From positions 6,212 through 70,211 of IMG/VR virus record IMGVR_UViG_3300037454_000194: a stretch of DNA of 64,000 bases, one strand, 5' to 3'. Positions 3,001 through 64,000 of this stretch are shown here, piece by piece. The position numbers and the translations under genes are program-made. Source of the stretch: a virus (lineage: Duplodnaviria; Caudoviricetes). Below the pieces are notes generated by a model. The model was not told the DNA's origin. It did no database searches and saw only the letters and a list, made by a program, of their open reading frames with translations. The stretch's first letter is position 1, and every line of letters starts with the position of its first letter.

Positions 3001-3489
3001 AAGTTCTATCAGGGTGGTCTGTATTGTGTTATGGGTGTCGAAGAGGCTATCAAAGACAATTCTTATCTTGCAACAGATGCCATGACCGACCTCTCATCTC
3101 AGATGATCGACTCTTTCGGTAATCCTCTCGATTATATTTCGAAAGTGGCTTCTGGTGAAATTGCATACGACCCGACGATTAGACCCGTTATGGACATGAG
3201 TGACGCGTATAGGGCATCTCTTGACGTAAATAGCATGTTCCGAAACCAGTCTATCTCTCTTAGCGGACTTTCTGGACAGATTGCGTACGATATGACGAAT
3301 CTTAACGGTTCTAATGCGGCCGTGGTCTCTGAGATTCAGGCACTTCGCGAAGATATGGACTTCATGACAGATGAACTGACCAACATGCAAATTGTTATGG
3401 ATACCGGAGCTCTCGTAGGTTCCACTGTTGGTGCTTATGACCAGGCTCTTGGTTCGAGACAAGTTTATTCTAAAAGGGGGACAATCTAA
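4..3489 (+). CDS. Tail tape measure protein, C-terminal part (5' end lies outside the window)
   Basis: More than 1100 aa of Ala/Ile/Leu-rich amphipathic repeats; frame open at window edge; C-terminal GIDANSPSKKF motif typical of TMPs; directly upstream of Dit. Confidence 0.85.
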   Translation: MTNQSDEQSSIKTSIKTLASSIKLIYSMAVLIAAIGVAVALMATGLAVIKKFDVGIKDLLILTGVLTVLVVSILGIVEVIKMLPETKNGIKGAGSLAAVALVIFAIASAMTSVAIALKVMEGMSTDGLIGALSVLFSLIAGIAVIIGLSALLAQYKPAAILAIAVVIAAVGFALSSIILSVAAAMNIMALASNISNGDADSILLPIFGFLGIVSIVILALIALIAVATKTAEQGDTGEIVGIMLSMTALIGSLAAAILLIGVALKLMENLKADQMISITTMMAVVLGGIALLTREFSNADPKQLLSGAVTVAAVGASMLLLAMAIKKLARISFASTGLLVAIGVISLVILMFSRMTALKKAAGDLSDLSSSMRDIKTTLAYVVAGILAFAVSMLIVAKAFEVMDGLKDVGQSALAMVGVLVVIAGVVALLTVIASKSFNSGDALLSVGAAFIMIAGAMLIFAFAVERMSSSNADLLGIVIVFGVLAAIMAVLAAIAAKFPKFGEAMITIGKAFLYAGIGAVLVGAGIWLVCDALKSLMPVIPALIIDANLFFTMLEDHYPVLIIITIIVVALTVAIVALGATVGPIIKSVAEVIASGAQVVLNLLDSLATGAKNFVSGLSTKGKAAIAGLITALCGALTKASPEVFKTIGNLIIKVLGYLGSIIGTIASALLEFIINLINGLAEAIRSHSNRVAASIFNLLYALIDVVLAVLKEIVNIIFGNMFGGKVADLLGDFLDYGQESLDAHAAKMLADAEAADAAKASLSGYNKELEKQAKAIADSETGGSSTGSSYSTGGGGGFLGGASEIKEKLGIGNFVDMDSIEGFDISKSINMEGAGANEFQKYMSNLGGDQSYATGYDTASMFDEGASDYFDTEGYDSAEGTGTTYTTTIADSMTSDQSIEEVKSATTDVTDAIDEELDTYHTTLTTTTIPKAMHGVYSAMVVNSSETTKGAKFIVDGILRAINSGMDSIYNAGAIVGDGLHAGFVGPRGIDANSPSKKFYQGGLYCVMGVEEAIKDNSYLATDAMTDLSSQMIDSFGNPLDYISKVASGEIAYDPTIRPVMDMSDAYRASLDVNSMFRNQSISLSGLSGQIAYDMTNLNGSNAAVVSEIQALREDMDFMTDELTNMQIVMDTGALVGSTVGAYDQALGSRQVYSKRGTI

Positions 3490-9032: not shown

Positions 9033-9050
9033 TTTTCAACCCGTATAATG
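9033..9050 (+). promoter_or_regulatory. Phage promoter motif TTTTCA-N5-TATAAT-G
   Basis: TTTTCA ACCCG TATAAT G, then hairpin GGTCA/TGACT. Confidence 0.8.
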
Positions 9051-12250: not shown

Positions 12251-12268
12251 TTTTCAACTCGTATAATG
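12251..12268 (+). promoter_or_regulatory. Phage promoter motif
   Basis: TTTTCA ACTCG TATAAT G, then ACCG/CGGT hairpin. Confidence 0.8.
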
Positions 12269-14801: not shown

Positions 14802-15431
14802 ATGGCTGAAGTTAAAGATGTCAAAGCGCCTGAGTCAAACTACAAACCGAAAGATTCCAAAGAAAAGAAGGTTATCTCTACTGGTAAGATTAAGGAGAAA
14901 ACCTTCTGGGCAAGAGTGAAGGATAGCTTCATCAGCGAAGAGGTACATGACGTAAAGTCGTATCTTGTGTTTGATATCGCTATTCCTGCCGTAAAGCGTA
15001 CTCTTCGTTCTCTTCTTGTAAACACTGTTGACATGACACTCTTTGGCAAGCCTATGGGTGACGAGAGAAAGTCAGAACAGCGTGGAGGTTCGACATACAT
15101 CGCATATGACAGAGCCTATGACCGTGCGTATGGTGGCGGACCTGCAAGAGGAGAGCGTCAGAAGAACAATAATCTCACAGTCGGCATCCGAGAGCTTGAC
15201 CGAGTCATTTTCAATGAGAAATCCGATGCAGTAGACGTGCTCTCATTCCTCTTTGACAACATTGAGGAATACGGAGTTGCGTCTGTTGCGGATTTCCTTG
15301 CCGCTGCAAATGTTGAGGTCACACCCATTGCTCACAAATGGGCATGGACAGACCTCAGAGGAGCATCTGTTGAAGAGTGTCCGGACGGAAGTGGATACTA
15401 CATCAGATTCCCAAAGACAAAACCGATTTAA
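14802..15431 (+). CDS. Conserved hypothetical phage protein
   Basis: RBS AAGGAGG; EEYGVASVADF..WAWTDLRGASVE..GYYIRFPK C-terminal motif; host-like codon usage. Confidence 0.75.
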   Translation: MAEVKDVKAPESNYKPKDSKEKKVISTGKIKEKTFWARVKDSFISEEVHDVKSYLVFDIAIPAVKRTLRSLLVNTVDMTLFGKPMGDERKSEQRGGSTYIAYDRAYDRAYGGGPARGERQKNNNLTVGIRELDRVIFNEKSDAVDVLSFLFDNIEEYGVASVADFLAAANVEVTPIAHKWAWTDLRGASVEECPDGSGYYIRFPKTKPI

Positions 15432-15824: not shown

Positions 15825-16739
15825 ATGGGTAAACCTAGAAAGGAAGTAGCTCTAATCGACATGATGATCTCCATCCTCGATAGAGTAAAGAACACGCTTG
15901 AGCTCATCAAAGAAGACAAGATGAGCGTCAAAGAAGCTTGCAGACGTAATGATATTTCATATGCTGCCGTACGCCGTATCCTCTTTGCGACAAACTGGGA
16001 GGAGCTTGAGGACGAAACGGAATACGAAAACTTCAAGAAGAAATTCTCAGAGACCATTCCCCTCTATCATTGGACTGAGATTCTATTTTGTGATGTATTC
16101 GCGCTCCCTCGTAACCCTGATTCCATTACCAAAATGCCTCCTGATGTACGAGAGACTGTTGAAAAGGCAGTCCATAGTCTTACAGAACGCGAGGAAAAGG
16201 TTATCAGACTCTTCTACGAGGACAACATGACCAAGGAAGAGGTCGCTGCTGAGATTGGTAGAAGCTACGAGAGAGTGAGACAGATTAAGGCAAAGGCTAT
16301 GAGGAAGCTCAAGCACCCCTCACGCATGGGCTATACTGTTTTTGGAGACGGTTACTACTGCTCCAAGAGAAAAGCCTACGATGATGTATACAACGACACG
16401 GTTTTGCAGGCTCGTAACGATGAAGCAAACAAGCTCAGAATCGTTGTTGAGGAGCGAAAGAAGCAGATTCAAGTAATTGACTCCATGTCTCTCCCTAGAG
16501 GATTCTTTGGTACAGAAGAAATCTCTGAACTTAATCTCTCTGTAAGAAGCTTCAACTGTCTTTGGAGAGCGGGTATCCATACCATCGAGGACCTTCGTAA
16601 TACAACATACGATGAGCTCAGCAAGGTGCGCAATCTCGGTAAGAAATCCCTTGATGAGATTCTAGATGTCATGGAGAGAGAAGGAATTGAGCTCAACAGT
16701 GTAAAACTTGATAAGAATGATAAGGAGAATTCAAAATGA
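15825..16739 (+). CDS. Sigma70 region-4 HTH fused to an RNA polymerase alpha C-terminal domain
   Basis: [45 protein letters not shown] (sigma4); [40 protein letters not shown] (alpha-CTD). Confidence 0.9.
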
Positions 16740-18389: not shown

Positions 18390-18407
18390 TTTTCAATCCT
18401 TATAGTG
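18390..18407 (+). promoter_or_regulatory. Phage promoter motif (variant)
   Basis: TTTTCA ATCCT TATAGT G. Confidence 0.7.
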
Positions 18408-18486
18408 GAGAGGTACGGATGGTGTAACTGGTAACACACTCGCTGGAACGCGAGAGATTGTTGGTTCGAGTCCAACTCCTATCTCT
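18407..18486 (+). ncRNA. tRNA-like cloverleaf with 6-nt anticodon loop and extended, bulged acceptor stem, forming a 5' leader
   Basis: D arm GTGT/ACAC, CTCGC-TGGAAC-GCGAG, T arm GTTGG-TTCGAGT-CCAAC; no CCA. Confidence 0.7.
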
Positions 18487-25267: not shown

Positions 25268-25834
25268 ATGTCTAGTAAAAAACACGATGACGAATATGTT
25301 GAGATAGAAAATTATCCTGATTATTATATAAATAGAAGCGGGGATGTTATAAGTAAAAAAGGTATAAAAGAAAGACACCTATCAACGAAACCATTAGATA
25401 AAGGATATAAAAATGTTAAAATGATAAACAAGAATGGAGAGAGACGGAGAGAATTTATACATAGAATATTAGCAAAAACTTTTATAGAAAATACAGACAA
25501 TCAATCAATCGTACGCCATCTCGATGATAATAAATTAAATAATACTTTGGATAATTTAGCATGGGGAAATCAGCAAGATAATACAGATGACGCAGTTCGA
25601 AATGGAATTATAATACGAAATAGTATATATTGCTATGAAACAGATACCATTTATACGAGCGCTCATGAGGCTTCACAAAAAATCGGAATAAGAGAATCTA
25701 GCATACAACAAGCAGCTAGAGGTCTTATGTGCCATGCTAAAGGATATCACTTTTGTTATGAAAAAGACATGGACGAAAAATTAAGCAATATTAATGAATG
25801 GATTGTTTGCAAAAATAAACCACATAATCGTTAA
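25268..25834 (+). CDS. Free-standing HNH homing endonuclease (NUMOD4-like N-terminus, HNH, C-terminal NUMOD1-like)
   Basis: IENYPDYYINRSGDVIS, IHRILAKTF..IVRHLDDNKLNNTLDNLAWGNQQDN; markedly AT-rich relative to its neighbours. Confidence 0.9.
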   Translation: MSSKKHDDEYVEIENYPDYYINRSGDVISKKGIKERHLSTKPLDKGYKNVKMINKNGERRREFIHRILAKTFIENTDNQSIVRHLDDNKLNNTLDNLAWGNQQDNTDDAVRNGIIIRNSIYCYETDTIYTSAHEASQKIGIRESSIQQAARGLMCHAKGYHFCYEKDMDEKLSNINEWIVCKNKPHNR

Positions 25835-25851: not shown

Positions 25852-25926
25852 GCCCTAGTACCCTCAATCGGTTAGAGGATCGGTCTTATAAACCGGAAGT
25901 TCTGGGTTCGAGTCCCAGCTAGGGTA
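25852..25926 (+). tRNA. tRNA-Ile(UAU)
   Basis: Acceptor GCCCTAG/CTAGGGT, D arm, anticodon stem TCGGT/ACCGG with loop CT-TAT-AA, T arm CTGGG-TTCGAGT-CCCAG; no encoded CCA. Confidence 0.9.
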
Positions 25927-38028: not shown

Positions 38029-38823
38029 ATGGGCGAAAGAATCTCAAAAGAAAATCTTGACAAGATTATTGAAGAACATAAGCATTGGCTTAAAGAAGAC
38101 TGCCCTGATTGGGAAACGAAACGTGCTGATTTACGTGGTGCTAAGTTATATAGTGCTGATTTAAGTGGTGTTAATTTACGTGGTGCTGATTTACGTGATG
38201 CTGATTTATATGGTGCTGATTTACGTGATGCTAAGTTATATAGTGCTGATTTAAGTGGTGCTGATTTACGTTATGCTACGTTATATGGTGCTGATTTACG
38301 TGATGCTGATTTATATGGTGCTAATTTAAGTGGTGTTAATTTACGTGATGCTGATTTACGTGATGCTGATTTATATGGTGTTAATTTACGTGGTGTTAAT
38401 TTACGTGGTGCTGATTTAAGTGGTGCGGATTTACGTGATGCTGATTTATATGGTGTTAAGTTATATTGTGCCAAAAATGTCCCGTTTATTCCAATGGCTT
38501 GCCCTGAAGTTGGTGAGTTCATAGGATGGAAGCAATGCCAATGTGATCTTATTGTAAAACTTAAGATTCCAGAAACCGCAAAAAGGTCATCTGCAACTGG
38601 AAGAAAGTGCCGTTGCAGCGAGGCTATAGTTCTTTCAATAGAAACAATGTCAGGACATGTTTCACAATTTAAAGTCGCGAAGAGTATACATGATGGGGCT
38701 TTCGTATACGAAGTCGGAAAGACTGTAAAAGTAGATGATTTCTGTGAAGATCGTTTTAAAGAGTGTGCACCTGGCATCCATTTCTTTATAAATCGTCAGG
38801 AAGCTGTTGATTATGTATATTAA
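38029..38823 (+). CDS. Pentapeptide-repeat protein with C-terminal DUF5758-like domain
   Basis: About 22 A(D/N)LxG/D pentapeptides; C-terminal KRSSATGRKCRCSEA..FCEDRFKECAPGIHFFINRQEA. Confidence 0.9.
   Translation: MGERISKENLDKIIEEHKHWLKEDCPDWETKRADLRGAKLYSADLSGVNLRGADLRDADLYGADLRDAKLYSADLSGADLRYATLYGADLRDADLYGANLSGVNLRDADLRDADLYGVNLRGVNLRGADLSGADLRDADLYGVKLYCAKNVPFIPMACPEVGEFIGWKQCQCDLIVKLKIPETAKRSSATGRKCRCSEAIVLSIETMSGHVSQFKVAKSIHDGAFVYEVGKTVKVDDFCEDRFKECAPGIHFFINRQEAVDYVY
38125..38465 (+). repeat. 15-bp tandem array encoding the pentapeptide repeats
   Basis: Units such as GCTGATTTACGTGAT, GCTGATTTATATGGT, GCTGATTTAAGTGGT with near-zero synonymous divergence. Confidence 0.9.
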
Positions 38824-46562: not shown

Positions 46563-46642
46563 GCCCAGGTGGTGGAATTGGCAGACACGTTGGATTTAGG
46601 TTCCAATGAGAAATCATGCGGGTTCGAGTCCCGTCCTGGGTA
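46563..46642 (+). tRNA. tRNA-Leu(UAG)
   Basis: Acceptor GCCCAGG/CCTGGGT, D arm GTGGAATTGGCAGACAC, anticodon stem TTGGA/TCCAA with loop TT-TAG-GT, variable arm, T arm GCGGG-TTCGAGT-CCCGT. Confidence 0.92.
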
Positions 46643-51250: not shown

Positions 51251-54202
51251 ATGCTTGATTTTTTAAAATTTGGGTATGAATTTATTAATCGTGAGAGCAG
51301 AATCACTGTACAGTACGCGTCCTCGACAAGAGTCAAAGATTTGATGATACGAGGTGGGTGCTTTTATGCGGCTTGGGATTTTGAGAATGAAGAGTGGACG
51401 CAAAACATTTGCAGAGTATATGAGCTCATTGATGCGTCGATTCAGGAATTTGTGAAAAGTCAAATGGAAACTCTCAAGATGGATGAGTACGAATACAGAC
51501 AAAGATATAAAATCCCGGTTGCAACACTCAGTGGAAGTAAGATACCAGAAAACTTTATCAAGTATACAAAACAAGTACAGGATAATTTTAAGCCGCTCAA
51601 TACCAAAGTAGTCTTCAAGAGTGATAAGGCGGCAAGAGAATTATATTCTTCGAAAAGACTCCCTTACGACCCTATTGAGATGGAGACTCCTGCATATGAT
51701 AGACTGATGTCCGTATTATATTCTGACAGTGAGAGACAAAAGATCGAGTGGCTTATAGGAGCTGGACTTTGCAGAGACAATGGAAAGATTCAGAAGTTCG
51801 GAGTTTTGTACGGTGAACCTGGAACTGGTAAGGGTACAGTACTTGATATTATCATGATGCTCTTTGAAGGCTATACCTCGGCGTTCGAAGCTGATGCGCT
51901 TGGGCATAAAAGCGACTCCTTTGCCCTTGAGCCGTTTAAGACAAATCCTGTTATTGCTATTCAAACTGATGGCAATCTTTCTAGAATAGAGAGTAACGCG
52001 AGACTTAACACGTTAATATCTCACGAGACAATGACCGTCAATGAGAAGTTTAAGAATAAATATACTGCGAAATTTGACACTATTCTTCTCATGGGCACTA
52101 ATAATCCAGTTCGTATAACAGATGCAAAATCGGGTCTTTTAAGAAGACTTATCGATATAGAACCAACTGGCAACACAATTCCGAAAGACGAGTACGATGA
52201 GATTAAAGAAAAGCTTCCTTTCGAGATCTCAGGTATTGCTTATCGTTGCATGGAATTATATTCTAACAACAAGAAGCTTTATAACGCCTACAGACCGATG
52301 ACAATGATGTCAAAGACTAACGAGTTCTATGACTTCGTACTCGAGTACTACGACCAGTTCTGTGCTGAGGATTATATTTTGCTGTCGACCGCTTGGACCT
52401 GGTATAAGAAATACGTTGAGGACTCAAACGCTTACACAAAGCTTTCTCGTAGAGCGTTCGCATCAGAGCTCTGCGCATATTTTGAAGAAGGACAGCACGA
52501 TGAGTGGTATGTAGATGAGGATGGGTCGCGCAAGCATCTCTCTTCCGTATATCGTGGTTTCAGACGTGAAAGGTTCAAGAACGTTAGGAATCGCGGAATC
52601 GGAGAAGTTAAGGTTGTGAAGAGTAAGAAGAGTTCTTCAGGCGCTGGAGAAGGTGGTTCGTCGGATGTAGCGGAGGAGAGCAAAGCGGATATTCTGAAGA
52701 ATCTTCCTAAATGGCTCAAGCTCAAAGACGTAAGCGGCATGAGTGATGACGATCTGATGGAGAATCCTCTCAATGTATATTTGAAAGATGCAAAAGCTCA
52801 GTATGCTGTTCCTACAGATACCGGTGGGTCAAAGCCGAAGAATAGCTGGGACTACACAAGGTCGAAGCTTAACGCGATCAACACTTTAAGAGAACATTAT
52901 ATTCTGACGCAGAGTATTGACCCGAGACTTATATGCATTGACTTTGACCTTAAGGACCCTGAAACGGGAGAGAAGAGTCTTGAGAGAAATCTTCTTGCCG
53001 CTGCAAAGTTCCCTAAAACCTATGCAGAGACTTCTAAATCTGGAAAGGGTCTTCATCTCTATTATATTTACGATGGAAATGTTGATGACCTTTCGATGCT
53101 TTATGATACAGAGATTGAGATTAAGGTCTTTACTGGAAAGTCTGCTTTAAGAAGAATGCTGTATCTTTGTAATACTGAGGAGATTAGTCACATTAATAGC
53201 GGTCTCCCATTGAAGGAAGTGAAGAAGATGATAAATTGGGAAGGTGTTCAAAATGAGAAGCACCTTAGAGCTCTTATAGAAAAAGGACTTAAGAAGCAAG
53301 TATTCCCCAACACAAAGCCGTCTATAGATTATATTTCCCATTGTCTCGAAGAAGCTTATAACAGTGGAGTGTCATATGACGTTACAGACATGAGACAAAA
53401 GGTTTTGAATATGGCTTATGCTGCTACCAATCAATCTGAGTATTGTGTCGAAGCTGTTTTAAAAATGAAGTTTAATAGCCCAGATAAAGAAAACGTAGAG
53501 GACGAAGAGCTTACCGAAGAACGAGAATCCGTATATTCTGAGAAAAAGATTGCTTTTTATGATATAGAGATTTTTCCTAATTTAGCTGTCGTTTGCTATA
53601 AAGTTGAAGGCGGAGTTGTTGGTAACGCTGGAAAAGACGAAGTTGTAACGCTTATTAACCCAACCGCTAATGAGATATCAGAACTGGTAGACACATACAA
53701 CCTTATCGGATTTAACAATTTTGCTTATGATGATCGATTACTTTATGCTATGATCCTCGGATATTCTAACGAAAGACTTTTCCAAATATCGCAAGCCATA
53801 ATTGTTCATGGAGAGAGAGTTTTTCAAAACAACCATATTGGTTATGCGGATATTCGTGATTTTGCTTCGAACAAACAAAGTCTTAAAAAGTATGAAATAG
53901 AAATCGGAAACGCGCAACCAGAATTGGATCTGCAACATCAGGAACTGGGGCTTCCGTGGGAAGAACCCGTTGACAAAAGTAAATGGGATCTTGTCGCTAG
54001 TTATTGTGCGAATGACGTTGTCGCCACAGAAGCAACTTTTTATTATTTAAAAGCCGATTGGACCGCAAGAAAGATGCTTGCTGAGATTGCTGATATGCCT
54101 GTATCGACATCTACAAATAACCTAACCGCTCAGATTATATTTGGAAATGTTCGCAATCCAAAACTCATGTATACAAATCTTAAAACTGGTGAGAGGAGCT
54201 AA
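51251..54202 (+). CDS. Fusion: SF3/D5-like helicase, primase-polymerase (AEP) domain and 3'-5' exonuclease domain
   Basis: Walker A GEPGTGKGT; CIDFDLKD and ETSKSGKGLHLYY (prim-pol); FYDIEIFPN, IGFNNFAYDD and YCANDV exonuclease motifs. Confidence 0.85.
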   Translation: MLDFLKFGYEFINRESRITVQYASSTRVKDLMIRGGCFYAAWDFENEEWTQNICRVYELIDASIQEFVKSQMETLKMDEYEYRQRYKIPVATLSGSKIPENFIKYTKQVQDNFKPLNTKVVFKSDKAARELYSSKRLPYDPIEMETPAYDRLMSVLYSDSERQKIEWLIGAGLCRDNGKIQKFGVLYGEPGTGKGTVLDIIMMLFEGYTSAFEADALGHKSDSFALEPFKTNPVIAIQTDGNLSRIESNARLNTLISHETMTVNEKFKNKYTAKFDTILLMGTNNPVRITDAKSGLLRRLIDIEPTGNTIPKDEYDEIKEKLPFEISGIAYRCMELYSNNKKLYNAYRPMTMMSKTNEFYDFVLEYYDQFCAEDYILLSTAWTWYKKYVEDSNAYTKLSRRAFASELCAYFEEGQHDEWYVDEDGSRKHLSSVYRGFRRERFKNVRNRGIGEVKVVKSKKSSSGAGEGGSSDVAEESKADILKNLPKWLKLKDVSGMSDDDLMENPLNVYLKDAKAQYAVPTDTGGSKPKNSWDYTRSKLNAINTLREHYILTQSIDPRLICIDFDLKDPETGEKSLERNLLAAAKFPKTYAETSKSGKGLHLYYIYDGNVDDLSMLYDTEIEIKVFTGKSALRRMLYLCNTEEISHINSGLPLKEVKKMINWEGVQNEKHLRALIEKGLKKQVFPNTKPSIDYISHCLEEAYNSGVSYDVTDMRQKVLNMAYAATNQSEYCVEAVLKMKFNSPDKENVEDEELTEERESVYSEKKIAFYDIEIFPNLAVVCYKVEGGVVGNAGKDEVVTLINPTANEISELVDTYNLIGFNNFAYDDRLLYAMILGYSNERLFQISQAIIVHGERVFQNNHIGYADIRDFASNKQSLKKYEIEIGNAQPELDLQHQELGLPWEEPVDKSKWDLVASYCANDVVATEATFYYLKADWTARKMLAEIADMPVSTSTNNLTAQIIFGNVRNPKLMYTNLKTGERS

Positions 54203-54207
54203 CCACT

Positions 54208-55464
54208 ATGGAGGGAATCATTCAAGCTTTTCCTGAGTACGAAATGATAACGGACGAAACTGGAAAACGCTGGATTGCTAATATGTATAAGGGGATTGAC
54301 GTTGGACGCGGAGGGTACGTATATTCTGTTCCAGGAATTTATAGGAACGTAGCTTTGTGCGACGTTGCGTCCATGCATCCACATTCCATCATCGCCATGA
54401 ACTATTTTGGTGAATACACAAAAAACTATGCCGACTTGGTAAATGCTAGAGTAGCAATCAAGCATAGAGACTTTGATACACTGCGTACATTGCTAGATGG
54501 AAAATTAGAAAAATACACACATGACGAGGAAATATTAGCCACACTAGATAAGGTGCTCAAATATCCCATAAATGCAACGTACGGAGAATCTGCCGCTAAG
54601 CATACCAATCGATTTCGTGATGAACGCAACATTAACAACATAGTTGCGCTTCGCGGTGCTTTGTTTATGGTAGACCTTAAAGAAGCCGTTGAAAAAGAAG
54701 GATATAAAGTCTGCCATATAAAAACAGATTCGATAAAAATACCGGATAGTGACGAGTATATTGTAGATTTTGTTCAAAAGTTTGCTGTTAAGTATGGATA
54801 TACAATGGAACACGAGGCAACATACGATAGAATTTGTCTTGTTAATAAATCAACGTATATCGCTAAGTATGACGCTAAAGGAATTCGCAATAAAGGCGGA
54901 AAACATGCTAATGAATGGACAGCAACCGGAGCAGAATTCCAACATCCGTATATTTTTAAAACACTTTTTAGTCACGAACCGATTTTGTTCGCAGACTACT
55001 GTGAGACAAAGAGTGTAAAAGGTGACGATGATATTTATCTAGATATGAACAAAGATCTAGTTCGTGATCTAGAAAAAGATGCTAACGATATTCGAAGTAA
55101 GATTCTTGAATGGCCTAAAGGCGTTCCGGGTATTATGGATATTAAGAGGAAATTAAAAGCCATAGAAAACGAGATTGAGTCAATACACAGTTTGAAGTTT
55201 GTAGGAAAATGTGGACAGTTTACTCCTGTAGATGATGCCGTTTCCGGAGGAGTTCTTATAAGATCATTAAAAGATTCCAAGACAGGAACCGTTAAGTATC
55301 AATCTGTTTCCGGATCAATTGGATATAGGTGGCTCGAGTCATATTATATTAAGAAAAACGGACTTGAAGATCATATAGATATGCGATACTTTAGAAAACT
55401 TGTAGATGATGCTTGCGGAACAATTTCTAAGTTTGGAGACGTTGATGAATTCATCAATGGGTAA
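54208..55464 (+). CDS. Family B-like DNA polymerase, polymerase domain only
   Basis: GGYVYSVPG, LCDVASMHPHS (motif A), LKYPINATYG (motif B), HIKTDSIK (motif C); RBS GAGGAG. Confidence 0.85.
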   Translation: MEGIIQAFPEYEMITDETGKRWIANMYKGIDVGRGGYVYSVPGIYRNVALCDVASMHPHSIIAMNYFGEYTKNYADLVNARVAIKHRDFDTLRTLLDGKLEKYTHDEEILATLDKVLKYPINATYGESAAKHTNRFRDERNINNIVALRGALFMVDLKEAVEKEGYKVCHIKTDSIKIPDSDEYIVDFVQKFAVKYGYTMEHEATYDRICLVNKSTYIAKYDAKGIRNKGGKHANEWTATGAEFQHPYIFKTLFSHEPILFADYCETKSVKGDDDIYLDMNKDLVRDLEKDANDIRSKILEWPKGVPGIMDIKRKLKAIENEIESIHSLKFVGKCGQFTPVDDAVSGGVLIRSLKDSKTGTVKYQSVSGSIGYRWLESYYIKKNGLEDHIDMRYFRKLVDDACGTISKFGDVDEFING

Positions 55465-55485: not shown

Positions 55486-56289
55486 ATGTCAATAGCCAAT
55501 TATTCTGTGCCATATAGCATGACATCTGATGAGCTCATGGAATATGAACGTGAATGGGCTATCTTTGAAGCAGAGGCCCAGTATGACGGAAGTCCTGAAA
55601 TAAGACCGCTCAAAAACTATCCAGGATACGAAGTGTCTTCATATGGAGACGTGATAAGCCTATTAGGTAAAGAAGAAAGGTCTTTGAAACCGTGTGCTAC
55701 TAATCATGGCCATCTTTATGTGTCGGTAATTGATAAAAACGGAAAAAAGTCTAAGAAACTAGTTCATAGACTTGTTGCTGAAGCCTTCTTAGAAAACCTG
55801 GAAAATTATCCGTTGGTTAGGCATTTGGATGACGATCCGACTCATAACGAAGTTGATAATTTAGCATGGGGTACCAAGCAGGACAATTACGCAGACATGA
55901 TTCGTAATGGGCATGACGTTTGCAGAAAAGCCGTTTACTGTTATGAGAATAATAAAGAGTACGAAAGCTGTGCAGAGGCCGCGAAAGATTTGGACGTTAG
56001 CAAGGCGTCTGTTACCATAGCTTGCCAAGGGAAAATATCGCATGTAAAAGGTTATCATTTATGTTATTTAAAAGATAAAGAATTCTATTTTAAACATTTG
56101 TTTGAATGGCTTAGAGATAAACCAATCGAAAAACCGGTCCATGCTAGAAATCTTGACACCGGAGAAACATTATATTTCAAAAGTGTTAATGAAGCGTCTG
56201 CTTATCTTGGAATACCGGCGTGCGGCATAAGCTCCACTTTACACGGGCACACAAAACACACCCATCGCTGGTTCTTCTGGGAAGACTAA
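55486..56289 (+). CDS. Free-standing HNH homing endonuclease (NUMOD4, HNH, NUMOD1 repeats)
   Basis: LKNYPGYEVSSYGDVIS; VHRLVAEAF..LVRHLDDDPTHNEVDNLAWGT; two YESxxEAAxxL-type motifs. Confidence 0.9.
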   Translation: MSIANYSVPYSMTSDELMEYEREWAIFEAEAQYDGSPEIRPLKNYPGYEVSSYGDVISLLGKEERSLKPCATNHGHLYVSVIDKNGKKSKKLVHRLVAEAFLENLENYPLVRHLDDDPTHNEVDNLAWGTKQDNYADMIRNGHDVCRKAVYCYENNKEYESCAEAAKDLDVSKASVTIACQGKISHVKGYHLCYLKDKEFYFKHLFEWLRDKPIEKPVHARNLDTGETLYFKSVNEASAYLGIPACGISSTLHGHTKHTHRWFFWED

Positions 56290-59000: not shown

Positions 59001-59188
59001 ACAGAAAGAATGGAAGACCGCTTGAGAACAATAAGCGTGTCAAAATCGTAGAAACTGGAGAAGTCTATGGCAATTATCTGGAAGCGACAAAAGCCATTGA
59101 CGGAAATCGATCTTGCGTATATTTGTGTCTCAAAGGAGACCGGAAACATCATAAAGGTTATAGTTTTGTTTATGAGGAGGAAACATGA
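58997..59188 (+). CDS. Stand-alone NUMOD1-like HTH protein
   Basis: IVETGEVYGNYLEATKAIDGNRSCVYLCLKGDRKHHKGYSF. Confidence 0.75.
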   Translation: MNRKNGRPLENNKRVKIVETGEVYGNYLEATKAIDGNRSCVYLCLKGDRKHHKGYSFVYEEET

Positions 59189-59886
59189 TGGAAGAAAGTT
59201 GGAAATTGCTTGAAGAGTATCCTAACTATGAGGTGTCGACTTTTGGACGAGTAAGAAGAGTCTATAATGACGGAAGCTTTGAGATGGTGGAGCCTTATAG
59301 TGACTTTGAAGTTATTAAGGTTAAGCTAGACAACTACAGAGGTGTCGAAGAGGTTGCGCTAGCATGGCTTGTCCTAGGTACGTTTGATCCTTATCGAGGA
59401 CCTGGCGGATGGTCTCCAATTGTATATTTAGATGAGGACCCCTGGAACTGTTCGCTTAGTAATATGCGATGGAAAAAAAAGAACATGAGAAAAACGTACG
59501 AGAGGCAAGAAAAAGAATATATGGAACACCATAAAGTATATTGCTATGAAAACAAAAAGACATATGACACGGCAAACGATGCATCAAATGATCTTGGTGT
59601 TGATAGAAGTTCAATTACAAAATGCTGTTTAGGTGTGTATTCTACAGCAGGAGGCTATACGTTTTCGTATGAAAGAAATAAAAACGAGGCAACAAGGGTT
59701 TCAAAAAATAGTAGGGGTAGAAAAGTATATTGTAAAAACATGATTGACGGTAGCATACAAATTTTTAATAATCAAAAAGAAGCTTGTGAATCTTTGAATT
59801 TGCCTTCTATTAAGAAGGTTCTTTCTGGCCATTGTAAACGAACTGGAAATTATATTCTTTCGTATTCGAAAGATGATATATTGTAA
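59185..59886 (+). CDS. NUMOD4/HNH-derived protein with a degenerate nuclease site plus NUMOD1 repeats
   Basis: LLEEYPNYEVSTFGRVR; ALAWLVLGTF and IVYLDEDPWNCSLSNMRW lack the usual His residues. Confidence 0.75.
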   Translation: MMEESWKLLEEYPNYEVSTFGRVRRVYNDGSFEMVEPYSDFEVIKVKLDNYRGVEEVALAWLVLGTFDPYRGPGGWSPIVYLDEDPWNCSLSNMRWKKKNMRKTYERQEKEYMEHHKVYCYENKKTYDTANDASNDLGVDRSSITKCCLGVYSTAGGYTFSYERNKNEATRVSKNSRGRKVYCKNMIDGSIQIFNNQKEACESLNLPSIKKVLSGHCKRTGNYILSYSKDDIL

Positions 59887-59933
59887 TGTCGGTAATCGTT
59901 TCGGGAACCTTTTAGCACACCCAAAGCACAGTA

Positions 59934-59951
59934 ATATCACAGCCTATAATG
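59934..59951 (+). promoter_or_regulatory. Phage promoter motif (variant) upstream of VRR-NUC, exonuclease and RNAP-like genes
   Basis: ATATCA CAGCC TATAAT G, then GGAT-GGACC/GGTCC-AATCC hairpin. Confidence 0.6.
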
Positions 59952-60017
59952 GAGAGGATGGACCTATGTTTTTTTTTGTTGGTCCAATCCGTATATTTTT
60001 AAGGAGCGTTGATTCTT

Positions 60018-60308
60018 ATGAAAGAATCCAAATTCCAAAAAGACTTAATAGGTAAGATAAAGAACGCGTTTCCAGATTGCATTGTGATGAAGAATGATCC
60101 GAATTATATTCAGGGTATTCCGGATCTTTTGATTCTGAACGGAGATAAATGGGTTTCTCTAGAATGCAAGAAATCTGAGGGCGCTTCTCATCAACCTAAT
60201 CAGGACTATTATATTTCTAAAATGAATAAAATGTCCTACGCGTCTTTCGTATATCCGGAAAACGAAGAGGAGGTACTAAATGAAATTCAACGAGCATTAT
60301 CGCCTTAA
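60018..60308 (+). CDS. VRR-NUC domain nuclease
   Basis: KESKFQKDLI..QGIPDLLIL..SLECKKS..QPNQDYYI. Confidence 0.85.
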   Translation: MKESKFQKDLIGKIKNAFPDCIVMKNDPNYIQGIPDLLILNGDKWVSLECKKSEGASHQPNQDYYISKMNKMSYASFVYPENEEEVLNEIQRALSP

Positions 60309-60879
60309 GGATAAACACTCATTCCTTAGCGCGAGTAAATTCCATTGGATTAACTATGATGACGAAAAGTTAGTTCAGTCGTGGAACACATTTGAGGCAG
60401 CGCAACTCGGAACAAGAATACATGCCCTTGCTGCTGAACTTATAGAGCTTGGTGTTAGACTGCCTAAGCAGAAGAAGACGCTGAATCTATACGTGAATGA
60501 TGGAATAGGATACAAGATGCAGACCGAACAAGTATTATATTTCTCAGATAATGCTTTTGGAACTGCAGATACTATCAGCTTTAGAAAAGAAGCTAAGACC
60601 GGTAGAAATACGCTTCGTATCCATGACCTTAAAACGGGAACGATACCGGCTCATATGGAGCAGCTTATGATTTACGCTGCTTACTTTTGTCTTGAATATG
60701 GCTATAAACCTCGAGACATCGACATCGAGCTTCGAATCTATCAAAACGACGAGGTTCTTGTACACAATGCTAATGATGAGTTTAAAGAAGAAACTACAGG
60801 GTACGACATGATTGAACTTATCATTAAGAAAATCATCGCGTACGACAAAATCATCGATGAGCTTAAAATGGAAGGGTGA
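60280..60879 (+). CDS. PD-(D/E)XK (Cas4/YqaJ-like) exonuclease
   Basis: HSFLSASK, GTRIHALA, FGTADTI, IHDLKTG, QLMIYA. Confidence 0.8.
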   Translation: MKFNEHYRLKDKHSFLSASKFHWINYDDEKLVQSWNTFEAAQLGTRIHALAAELIELGVRLPKQKKTLNLYVNDGIGYKMQTEQVLYFSDNAFGTADTISFRKEAKTGRNTLRIHDLKTGTIPAHMEQLMIYAAYFCLEYGYKPRDIDIELRIYQNDEVLVHNANDEFKEETTGYDMIELIIKKIIAYDKIIDELKMEG

Positions 60880-60884
60880 TCACT

Positions 60885-63782
60885 ATGAACTTTGATGGCG
60901 CTTTGGTATATTCTGATGATGAGCTTCTTGAGCACTCTGGAGTTTCAAAGCGAGACGGAGCAAAAGTAGGATCAGGCAGATATCGCCTTGGTTCTGGAGA
61001 TAATCCATATCAGCATCTTGAAGGTCTGTATGGAGAGTATCGAAAACTAAAAAAGCAGGGTCTTTCCGATGGTGAAATTGCAGAGATGCTTAACATGTCG
61101 TCTGGAGATATGAGAGGACGACTGCAATATTATCAAGCACTAAAAAACAACAAAAAAATGTCTGATGCCGTATATTATCTAGATCAAGGTTTGACAATGA
61201 ATCAGATTGCTGAAAAGCTTGGCGTGTCTACGTCAACGGTATCTAATTATCTTAAAGCTTCCACTGAAGTTAGAGAAAACAAAATTATATCTACACGCAA
61301 TGCTTTAAAAGATAAGGTCGATACCGTCGGTTGGGTTGAAGTAGGAGACGGCACAGAAGCATGGATGGGTGTAAAGAAGACCCTTTTGGACGCGGCGGTT
61401 CTATCCTTATATGACGAGGGATACGAAGTATATTCTGACATAAGAGTTAAACAGGGTGGAAGCAAAAACTTTACTACACTTAAGGTTCTTGCCAAGCCAG
61501 GTATGACTCGAGGGGATATTCTCGCTGACAAAGGAAACATCGAAGCTACAATGGCGGATGTTAGATCTAGGGACGGTGGCGAAACTTTCGATAAGAAAGG
61601 ACCCCCGGTGAATATATCTTCTAAACGCATAGATATTAGATACGCCGACGATGAGCCCTCAGGCGTGGCGATGGATGGTATTATAGAGCTTCGCAGAGGT
61701 GTTCCGGACCTTAATATGGGCAATGCTCATTACGCACAGGTCAGAATCGCTGTGGATGGCAAGTATTATGCGAAAGGTATGGCCGTATATTCTGACGATT
61801 TGCCAGATGGAGTAGATGTTCGAGTAAATAGTAATAAGCCAAGATCTGGCGGTATATCTGAAGCTCTCAAGGCACAAAAACATGTAAATGGAGATAAGAA
61901 CCTCCCAATCGATGAGAACAATCCATTTGGAACAAATACCAAACAAGAGTGGGAACTGGAGAGAGCCAGTAATTTTTATATTGATCCAAAAGACGGAAAG
62001 AAAAAACAATCTGCTCTGAACTTTGTTAATGAAGAAGGCGGATGGGATGAATGGTCTAAAAACTTAGCATCTCAGTTTTTAGGAAAACAGCCACCCGAAT
62101 TAGCAAAACAGCAATTGAATCTTGATGTTCTCACCAGACAGCGCGAGTTTGAAAAGATTAAACAACTTACAAATCCGGTACTTAAAGCGGATCTGTTGTT
62201 AGACTTTGCTGACACATGTGATTCGGCAGCCGTGGATCTTAAGGCCGCAGCCCTTCCAAGGCAGGCAACTGCAACAATTGTACCGGCAAATTCATTACGA
62301 GAAAACGAGATATATGCTCCTCGAATGAAACATGGAGAAGAAGTTATACTTGTTCGTTTCCCACATGGAGGTATATTTGAAATTCCTAGATTGACAGTTA
62401 ACAATAAGAATAAAGAGGCTGAGCAAAGAATAGGAAACGCTGCGGTAGATGCCGTATGTATAAATTCTGAGACGGCTAAGGTGCTGTCAGGTGCAGATTT
62501 TGACGGTGATACAGTTCTTGTTATACCGACAAAAGGTCATAATATCGTTAATAAGAAACCTTACAAGGAACTTAAGGATTTTGACCCTCACGTCCAATAT
62601 GCTATGACAGACGAGGATATTTCTTCAGGAAAAGTTAAGTTATGGGAAAAAGGAAGTATGCGCGAGCATACGCAGATGGGTATTATATCTAACCTTATCA
62701 CGGACATGACGTTGCAAGGTGCTCCTGATGAAGATTTGATACCAGCAGTAAAGCACTCTATGGTTATAATTGACGTTGGAAAGCACAAACTTAATTGGAA
62801 GCAATCCGAAATCGATAATAACATAGACGCCTTACGAAAAAAATATCAGGTCAAAGTCGATCCTAAAACTGGTGATATAACTGGATACGGTGGGGCAGGA
62901 ACACTTCTCTCAAGATCGAAAGGTCAAGTAAGTGTACAGGCTGTTAAATCATATACCAATATTAACCAAAAAGGAAAGCCCTGGTACGATCCGACTAAGC
63001 CGGAAGGTGCCAAGATAAAGGTGCCTGATAATGAAATGGTAGCTGTTCGAAAAAAGACAGGAGAAATCAATCCAGAGACCGGTAAGCCAATATGGGAGAC
63101 CGTTGGGTATAAGACAAGAACCAGAAAGTCTTCCAGAATGATGGAGACAGATGATCCGTATGAGCTTACTTCTGGTGGTTCTAAGGAAAATCCTGGTACG
63201 CAAATCGAAGCAGTATACGCTGAATACGCAACCCGTATGAAAGCAATGGCCAACGAAGCTCGAAAAGAGTATATTAAGGCCGATAGCGAAGCTGAGAAGA
63301 AAAATCCAACAGCCGCTAAGACATATGCTAAAGAAGTAGACCATCTACTTTACCAAGTAAATGAGGCAAAAAAGAATGCTCCTCTTGAACGAAGAGCACA
63401 AGGTCTTGCTCAGATGACTGTTGAACTGGCAAAACAGAACAACATGAATATGTCTAAGGCTGAAGAGTCCAAAATGATGGATAAAGAGCTTAAACGTGCA
63501 AGAGAAATTGTGGGAGCTAGTCGATATAGAGTAAAAATTTCTGATAAGGAGTGGGAAGCGATTCAGTCAGGAGCTGTATCGAAGACGACTCAAAAAGAAA
63601 TATTTAGATACACTGACAACGATAGGCTTCGAGAATTGGCAATGCCGAAAACTCCAAAAGAGCTTCCTAAAGTATATTTAAATGCAGCGAAATCAATGGT
63701 TGATCGCGGCTATACGATAGCAGAGGTTGCAGATCGTTTCGATGTATCACCTTCCACACTGTCTAAACTCATTAATCAGTAA
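60885..63782 (+). CDS. Putative single-chain two-barrel RNA polymerase (YonO/QDE-1-like) with N- and C-terminal HTH domains
   Basis: AQVR..YAKGMAVYSDDLPDGVDVRVNSNK (DPBB-A-like); VILVRFPH..DAVCINSETAKVLSGADFDGDTVLVIP (DFDGD at 62496-62510); HTH patterns near both ends. Confidence 0.75.
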   Translation: MNFDGALVYSDDELLEHSGVSKRDGAKVGSGRYRLGSGDNPYQHLEGLYGEYRKLKKQGLSDGEIAEMLNMSSGDMRGRLQYYQALKNNKKMSDAVYYLDQGLTMNQIAEKLGVSTSTVSNYLKASTEVRENKIISTRNALKDKVDTVGWVEVGDGTEAWMGVKKTLLDAAVLSLYDEGYEVYSDIRVKQGGSKNFTTLKVLAKPGMTRGDILADKGNIEATMADVRSRDGGETFDKKGPPVNISSKRIDIRYADDEPSGVAMDGIIELRRGVPDLNMGNAHYAQVRIAVDGKYYAKGMAVYSDDLPDGVDVRVNSNKPRSGGISEALKAQKHVNGDKNLPIDENNPFGTNTKQEWELERASNFYIDPKDGKKKQSALNFVNEEGGWDEWSKNLASQFLGKQPPELAKQQLNLDVLTRQREFEKIKQLTNPVLKADLLLDFADTCDSAAVDLKAAALPRQATATIVPANSLRENEIYAPRMKHGEEVILVRFPHGGIFEIPRLTVNNKNKEAEQRIGNAAVDAVCINSETAKVLSGADFDGDTVLVIPTKGHNIVNKKPYKELKDFDPHVQYAMTDEDISSGKVKLWEKGSMREHTQMGIISNLITDMTLQGAPDEDLIPAVKHSMVIIDVGKHKLNWKQSEIDNNIDALRKKYQVKVDPKTGDITGYGGAGTLLSRSKGQVSVQAVKSYTNINQKGKPWYDPTKPEGAKIKVPDNEMVAVRKKTGEINPETGKPIWETVGYKTRTRKSSRMMETDDPYELTSGGSKENPGTQIEAVYAEYATRMKAMANEARKEYIKADSEAEKKNPTAAKTYAKEVDHLLYQVNEAKKNAPLERRAQGLAQMTVELAKQNNMNMSKAEESKMMDKELKRAREIVGASRYRVKISDKEWEAIQSGAVSKTTQKEIFRYTDNDRLRELAMPKTPKELPKVYLNAAKSMVDRGYTIAEVADRFDVSPSTLSKLINQ

Positions 63783-64000
63783 AGTATATTTTTGAGGTTG
63801 TTATCAGTCGCTCTTAAAAGCCCTCTTATACGAGAGTCCTAAAAGAGCCTTCTGATGGGGCCCTATTACCTCCTAAAGTATATTTTTGAGGTTGTTATCA
63901 GTCGCTCTTAAAAGCCCTCTTATACGAGAGTCCTAAAAGAGCCTTCTGATGGGGCCCTATTACCTCCTAAAGTATATTTTTGAGGTTGTTATCAGTCGCT
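63780..64000. repeat. Perfect 94-bp tandem repeat, at least 2.3 copies, runs off the window end
   Basis: TAAAGTATATTTTTGAGG... recurs at 63780, 63874, 63968. Confidence 0.95.

Follow-up and report, generated by a model that had tools for sequence, protein, structure and literature searches.

The DNA studied here, a 64-kb window that forms the end of a 70,211-bp linear virus contig (IMG/VR record IMGVR_UViG_3300037454_000194; 92% complete), encodes at 60885..63782 on the + strand a protein of 965 amino acids (aa) which, by its modelled fold and its catalytic set, is a two-barrel single-chain RNA polymerase (RNAP). It is a divergent new member of a family already in print (PHROG 4291, the phage-1706 family) and not a new family. 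We propose, with slightly less than even confidence, that it serves its phage as a head-packaged, sigma-independent early RNA polymerase. The only run with the whole stretch is a bovine gut metagenome, possibly its source; the contig begins within the tail genes, and the head module is absent from it.

The reading frame is open to TAA 63782 from ATG 60885, with GTG 60876 as an alternative start. Residues are numbered here from the ATG; the Pfam scan was numbered from the GTG and gives values three residues higher. A PDB sequence search returned no polymerases and only weak helix-turn-helix (HTH) matches, so that a structure model was needed to recognise the fold. The best Foldseek matches of the AlphaFold model (predicted local distance difference test, pLDDT, 85; predicted template modelling score, pTM, 0.75) were QDE-1 (E 1.4e-8), RDR2 and the Thermus phage RNAPs gp62/gp64. 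Residues 240-797 of the model aligned with residues 681-1186 of QDE-1 with a Z of 16.7 over 364 residues and a root-mean-square deviation of 4.3. An earlier note on this DNA, made from the letters alone, had called the protein a single-chain two-barrel RNAP and had suggested a Foldseek comparison with QDE-1 and the crAss phage RNAP. The AlphaFold fold and the conserved catalytic set bear out the call: a pair of double-psi barrels was found, the crAss match being weak (E 0.04).

The first double-psi barrel region (61602..62093, + strand), delimited by conservation and the QDE-1 alignment, holds D264, Q285, R287, K297 and K318, followed by the conserved Q397/K401. The second barrel (62265..62528, + strand) is the metal-binding one, with R491, P493 and D538/D540/D542, and matches the beta-prime/Rpb1 barrels. 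In motif terms these are QVR (aa 285-287), KG (297-298), K318, RFP (491-493) and DFDGD (538-542, within nucleotides 62484-62522). Across 150 homologues Q285, R287, K297, G298, R491, P493, G536, A537, D538, D540, G541 and D542 do not vary, and at least 90% retain D264 and K318. The RFP..DFDGD metal barrel described in the note is present and invariant, and the residues of its QxR..KG..SxxK pattern stand where it had placed them, but the serine of SxxK is not conserved. Two-barrel polymerases share eight invariant residues, R, P and three D in one barrel and D and two K in the other (PMC2919709). The protein has candidates for all eight (R491, P493, D538, D540, D542, D264, K297 and K318), and the order and spacing of D264, K297 and K318 suggest their equivalence to the QDE-1 residues. 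Judged from the model, the RNAP is very probably active, and its synthesis is predicted to be DNA-dependent.

Both ends of the core carry putative DNA-binding units. A long helix connects HTH1 with HTH2, and together they occupy aa 43-127 (61011..61265, + strand; Pfam and DSSP). A third N-terminal unit at aa ~150-205 (61332..61499, + strand) is winged-helix-like, with a helix-helix-beta hairpin order in DSSP, and had only weak Foldseek matches, to TFE-alpha and eWH domains (E 0.05-0.09); a fold search with the N-terminal domain gave nothing at E ≤0.001. The C-terminal HTH spans aa 929-965 (63669..63779, + strand; Pfam HTH_7 and DSSP). HTH-like segments lie at aa 60-72, 103-123 and 943-963, and the Pfam HTHs at ~98-133 and 935-968, counted from the GTG. 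The two N-terminal HTHs and the C-terminal one had been seen before; the winged-helix-like unit had been missed. These four units are the obvious candidate readers of a promoter.

The PHROG 4291 profile matched over its full length (8-906 of 909, E 9.7e-286). Among the matches listed were 250 phage records, 249 of them over at least 80% of the query, at 34-42% identity; the phages infect Arthrobacter, Gordonia, Streptomyces, Lactococcus, Faecalibacterium and others. PHROG 4291 is the family of 1706 ORF75, of the 'putative RNA polymerase' of FP_oengus and of the 'HTH DNA-binding domain protein' of actinophage clusters AM/AU/AW/BI/CC/DJ/EL/FK. Among the phage homologues listed, most are annotated as HTH protein and some as RNA-dependent RNA polymerase (RdRP), the label used by RefSeq and PHROG; the misannotation that the note had expected holds for most of these records. 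The wider family comprises 744 clusters at 50% identity (E ≤1e-30), in which our copy sits on a long-branch clade (stem 1.04), with its nearest relatives at 79% and 68%. SPbeta was absent among the matches listed, a search that included no direct pairwise comparison with YonO. PF05183 (eukaryotic RdRP) was not among the 25 Pfam hits shown for the RNAP, and one homologue, P0070, carries it. The novelty that the note had implied was too high. Ruprich-Robert and Thuriaux (2010; PMC2919709) had named a 1706 family of YonO-like proteins and treated it as a separate family, and the RdRP-like core, the DxDGD motif and the HTHs at both ends had been described for a putative polymerase (bioRxiv 10.1101/842583).

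The note had also drawn attention to a repeated TTTTCA-N5-TATAAT-G pattern, and this motif is real: we found 27 matches with at most one mismatch against 1.16 expected, and a weight-matrix scan gave 27 sites on the + strand and none on the − strand. One motif promoter (59926..59951, + strand; weight matrix) lies 934 bp upstream of the RNAP gene, with its start placed by inference at G59951. It would drive the nuclease, the exonuclease and the RNAP, and perhaps structural genes beyond the genome end. By pattern and weight matrix, 25 further promoters lie between 9030 and 57236 on the + strand, with predicted +1 positions at 9050, 11097, 12268, 13052, 15451, 18407, 21922, 24301, 24890, 25013, 25965, 26427, 26877, 27242, 28515, 37672, 39938, 40093, 40850, 46689, 47910, 48230, 48601, 56903 and 57235; a further one precedes the window by 3012 bp. 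The promoter at 59926-59951 and its equivalents in the relatives G002, G004, L034 and L035 have another middle box and a purine-rich leader, and may form a distinct later class. Defective tRNA-like elements directly follow motif promoters (18407-18485 of the window and 3199-3300 of its contig, G000, with similar ones at +1..+8 in 11 other genomes), and related 5' leader hairpins start at the predicted +1 at 12268, 15451, 24301, 25965, 26427, 28515 and 37672.

A clear three-box form of the motif was present in 41 of 42 genomes that carry the RNAP gene, always on the gene strand; in G024 it was unclear. The hosts of the motif-bearing genomes are Bacillota and Actinomycetota. The boxes, CGCR at −24..−21, WWCA at about −15..−12 and TATAAT at −6..−1, followed by a purine, are about one helical turn apart, and one gut clade has CTTTAT/TATTAT as its hexamer. 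The fractions of sites with CGC are biased by the seeding matrix, but the CGC box also emerged outside the scanned columns, which is unbiased support. The window's genome has no CGC box at any of its 27 sites; that this loss is clade-wide rests on this genome and on about 10 sites in the 13-kb loci of relatives. Conversely, near-complete contigs chosen by the motif alone carried the RNAP gene in 19/19 and 22/24 cases (41/43 in total). One exception was truncated after the helicase and lacked the whole four-gene block; the other had a single motif match and no family polymerase. The link between gene and motif made in the note is supported by this co-occurrence. Across 596 Gb of prokaryote genomes the strict motif occurred at 98 places, close to a chance estimate of about 70, and the window-type pattern gave single, mostly chance matches in IMG/VR.

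Six genes of the window were found in 24/24 relatives, those for a tail protein, the primase-polymerase, the helicase, the endonuclease, the exonuclease and the RNAP, and of these only the RNAP can be recognised as a transcription protein. In 23 complete relatives, none of 291 motif sites fell between the end of the RNAP gene and the tape-measure gene, where about 83 were expected by length; hence we conclude that the motif serves the non-structural genes. The window's genome offers an exception, a motif site in the tail region that precedes a tRNA-like element.

Where transcription would begin at these promoters could be predicted. At 84 sites, spread over 27 genomes, the core of a Shine-Dalgarno sequence begins at +1..+4. 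tRNA-like genes, called under relaxed settings, have their first base at +1..+8 in 12 genomes, in 10 of them at ≤+6; the one here begins at 18412. Of the leaders in this genome, 18/27 open with a hairpin at +1 (shuffled sequences, mean 8.9 and maximum 15), as against 4 at +7. In an initial version of this test the T at −1 lengthened the stems, and nothing emerged; the count given is for transcripts. Since Shine-Dalgarno cores, tRNA-like genes and, in this genome, leader hairpins begin at +1 or a few bases beyond it, the likely first transcribed base is the purine next to the hexamer. If sigma-A began the transcript at about +7, the Shine-Dalgarno core would be cut, which argues against sigma-A. 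The sigma independence claimed in the note is upheld in so far as sigma-A does not explain this start geometry.

We looked for covariation between the HTH units and the promoters. The top columns, 289, 380 and 381, track one RNAP clade, and no specificity residue could be named. The CTTTAT promoter type maps to that clade with a few reversions, and the clade without the CGC box also has changed HTH1 and HTH2 recognition helices.

The N-terminus of the RNAP bears on how it might reach a new host cell. Its DUF7211-like leader (60918..61010, + strand; pLDDT <50) contains an acidic L-x-H tag, L15-E16-H17, which the note had not remarked on, and an SGRY motif. An acidic L-x-H-x-G leader is present in 140/147 RNAP representatives, and small head-module proteins have a DUF7211 leader to which it can be aligned (hhalign P 95%). 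When 3,093 N-termini were ranked by the DUF7211 leader, RNAPs filled most of the top 60, and orf7 of 1706, annotated as structural, carries two DUF7211 copies. The capsid gene of the family is an S78 protease-scaffold-capsid fusion (e.g. L019:6971-9031, with orthologues in 24 genomes). The scaffold part has 79 L-x-H occurrences where 11 were expected (7-fold), at that spacing only and in 22/24 genomes; G or A usually comes after the last of them, and what then remains has the size of a capsid protein. At portal N-termini the count is 14 against 1.1 expected (13-fold). Since it is enriched in the scaffold and at portal N-termini, L-x-H is probably a prohead-protease site, and the simplest reading is that proteins with such a leader are putative head cargo. 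A weaker point is that the RNAP body is depleted of L-x-H to 0.25 of expectation, the lowest of 20 residues, and here none follows H17. T4, with its capsid-targeting sequence, and SPN3US/phiKZ, with their ejection proteins, likewise use a short N-terminal leader that closes with a prohead-protease site also present in scaffold and portal (see PMC5694885); the last residue of the site is Glu in those systems, whereas here it would be His. As a separate observation, many [LI]-x-H sites are limited to the scaffold, which suggests a His-specific S78 prohead protease; we found no description of one.

We therefore propose the following model. The two double-psi barrels, with their D-x-D-x-D metal site, would make RNA on DNA. 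The RNAP would recognise the three-box promoter without sigma and start at the purine after the hexamer, a step that we consider likely. The last motif promoter would express its gene, which on a circular map precedes the structural genes. The product would then enter proheads by means of its acidic L-x-H leader, where the S78 prohead protease would clip it as it clips scaffold and portal, and would leave the head together with the DNA to begin the early transcription of the non-structural genes. Provided that the RNAP reads the promoter in this way, we lean towards its delivery from the head. More tentative, and short of even confidence, is the sharper claim that a cross-phylum family packs a 110-kDa one-chain RNAP through a His-ending leader, its own HTH arms reading a 25-bp promoter, and RNA synthesis beginning at the base that follows the hexamer, with neither sigma nor host RNAP.

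Several points weigh against this model. TATAAT is the sigma-A −10 consensus. The counts that join motif and gene share ancestry and therefore tie the motif to the phage family and not to one gene. The covariation has counter-examples: G003, without the HTH2 Arg, keeps the CGC box, and 1706 keeps the Arg and mostly lacks the box. The hairpin signal at +1 was not seen in other genomes, and the one metatranscriptome run covered the contigs at a low, scattered level, uninformative on start sites and expression. As to packaging, the protease evidence comes from relatives because the contig has no head module. The depletion of L-x-H is partly common to non-virion controls (0.6-0.8), while it is absent in DUF7211 bodies (1.0) and in the mature capsid. 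The orf75 of 1706 is not labelled structural in RefSeq, though several other 1706 ORFs are. Finally, in our literature search no member of the family turned up with an enzyme assay, a mapped start site or a virion proteome.

The RNAP might read the motif but need a partner as subunit or initiation factor, either the PHROG 4303 protein or some other protein from phage or host, which would fit virion and non-virion use alike. A PHROG 4303 gene of 75-105 aa directly follows the RNAP gene in 14/14 annotated phages and in the assembled relatives except L035, a 78%-identical relative. Its product (L034:12940-13194 and relatives) is conserved, acidic, about 85 aa long and without a Pfam family, and we regard it as a candidate RNAP subunit or cofactor. 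Yet neither in this contig, 92% complete, nor in L035 did we find the gene. Its place is taken by a perfect tandem array of 94 bp that runs from the RNAP stop (63780..64000, + strand; about 4-5 copies by depth), beyond which the gene may lie. L035 has a related array with slight copy-to-copy differences (L035:12911-13267), so that an assembly artefact is unlikely. On balance we find the requirement for a partner rather unlikely.

Alternatively, the RNAP could be a non-virion enzyme serving the same motif promoters. Host RNAP would make its first copies, through a leaky TATAAT or read-through, and the enzyme would then amplify itself as P23-45 gp64 does, the leader being vestigial or of other use. 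This would agree with the motif promoter upstream of the RNAP gene here and, at 0.9-1.1 kb, in 14/23 relatives, with gp62/gp64, non-virion proteins, as the closest phage structures, and with the lack of a structural label on 1706 orf75. It does not sit well with the retention of the tag in 140/147 divergent homologues and its match to the scaffold, portal and DUF7211 motif, nor with the missing host sigma-A elements at the motif, and we consider it improbable.

Less probable still is that host sigma-A RNAP, perhaps with a phage activator, reads the early motif, and that the phage enzyme, like YonO, acts late, on the structural operon. YonO does transcribe late genes, and the structural module, being without motif sites, needs another explanation. 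The hexamer of the motif has been read as a sigma-70 −10 element in Gordonia phage Vardy (PMC9671010). Yet the motif sites show no enrichment of the other sigma-A elements: an extended −10 TG occurs at 12/534 sites, and −35-like hexamers occur at 52/534 against 70 in the control and at 0/27 in this genome. Sites of the Oengus clade (CTTTAT) lack sigma-A's T-A at the hexamer start (0/15), the ribosome sites and tRNA-like genes overlap the expected sigma-A start, and bacterial genomes show no enrichment of the motif. This genome does encode a sigma4-alphaCTD protein, an ORF at 15825-16739 that fuses an HTH, sigma-70 region 4 and an RNAP alpha C-terminal domain. We rejected it as the family-wide reader of the motif; it has counterparts in 0/24 motif-bearing relatives and is unrelated to the HTHs of the RNAP. 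It may modulate host RNAP.

That the protein is an RNA-dependent polymerase, a primase-like enzyme or a dead DNA-binding scaffold, as the database labels 'RdRP' and 'HTH protein' and its best structural matches QDE-1 and RDR2, which use RNA templates, might suggest, is very improbable given the double-stranded DNA phage context, the four DNA-binding modules, the separate primase-polymerase, the invariant catalytic set and the DNA dependence of the tested phage relatives YonO and gp64.

Set beside the 1706 family, the RNAP shows full-length homology, HTHs at both ends, the GADFDGD signature and the promoter motif. The synteny is also shared, with helicase, endonuclease, Cas4-like exonuclease and RNAP in that order near the right genome end; in 1706 extra genes lie between exonuclease and RNAP. 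It differs in belonging to a long-branch rumen clade with altered HTH1/HTH2 recognition helices, in the loss of the CGC box, and in having the 94-bp array for the partner gene. YonO of SPbeta is likewise a single-chain two-barrel phage enzyme of about 100 kDa, and the two were grouped as YonO-like in 2010; it is, however, a tested late-gene polymerase, whereas here the motif precedes non-structural genes, and how YonO finds its promoters was stated as unknown (PMC5467207).

P23-45 gp64/gp96 and P74-26 gp62 (bioRxiv 10.1101/2022.12.01.518664) match the model structurally (E 3e-5 to 5e-5, Z 11.6-13.9). They too are single-chain enzymes with private promoter motifs, and gp96, which travels in the virion, acts on an AT-rich early motif. 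Unlike the RNAP here, with its HTH arms and a putative cleaved head tag, gp96 is fused to the tape measure protein and gp64 is a non-virion protein of about 600 aa. The two-barrel gp66 of crAss phi14:2 is packaged in the virion for early transcription, as proposed here, but it has about 2,200 aa, no reported HTH arms and only the weak structural match given above. In its private motif before non-structural genes the present phage resembles those with virion RNAPs (crAss gp66, P23-45 gp96, N4 vRNAP). Neurospora QDE-1 and plant RDR2 are the closest solved folds for the catalytic core (Z 16.7 and 15.5); they are, however, eukaryotic RNA-silencing enzymes without promoters, at 11-19% identity.

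A defined promoter, a predicted start base and a predicted protease site make it testable in weeks how single-chain two-barrel polymerases find promoters. The natural promoter variants, the CTTTAT clade and the clade without CGC, suit swap comparisons. The family is large and mostly mislabelled as HTH protein or RdRP, and it includes the easily cultured phages 1706, Mudcat, Rima and Tanis. If the model is true, early transcription would be host-independent, which could help to explain jumps between Bacillota and Actinomycetota hosts, and the enzyme would offer a T7-like orthogonal expression system on a cellular-type fold.

Upstream of the RNAP gene, profile searches identified a small endonuclease gene (PHROG 93; 60009..60308, + strand), a core gene of the operon, and a Cas4/PD-(D/E)XK exonuclease gene (PHROG 3953; 60280..60879, + strand) that adjoins the RNAP start and is closely coupled to it; both occur in 24/24 relatives. 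The primase-polymerase (PHROG 4210; 51251-55464) consists of two ORFs here and of one in L035 and L240, and in L034 and L241 an HNH gene lies at the split. NUMOD4/HNH homing-endonuclease-like genes lie in and around the replication module (55486-56289, 59185-59886 and 25268-25834). The window also contains tRNA-Ile(TAT) at 25852, tRNA-Leu(TAG) at 46563, a pentapeptide-repeat protein gene with about 22 copies of a 15-bp period (38123-38471), and an unannotated gene for a 209-aa protein without a Pfam match (14802-15431), which is present in 21/24 relatives.

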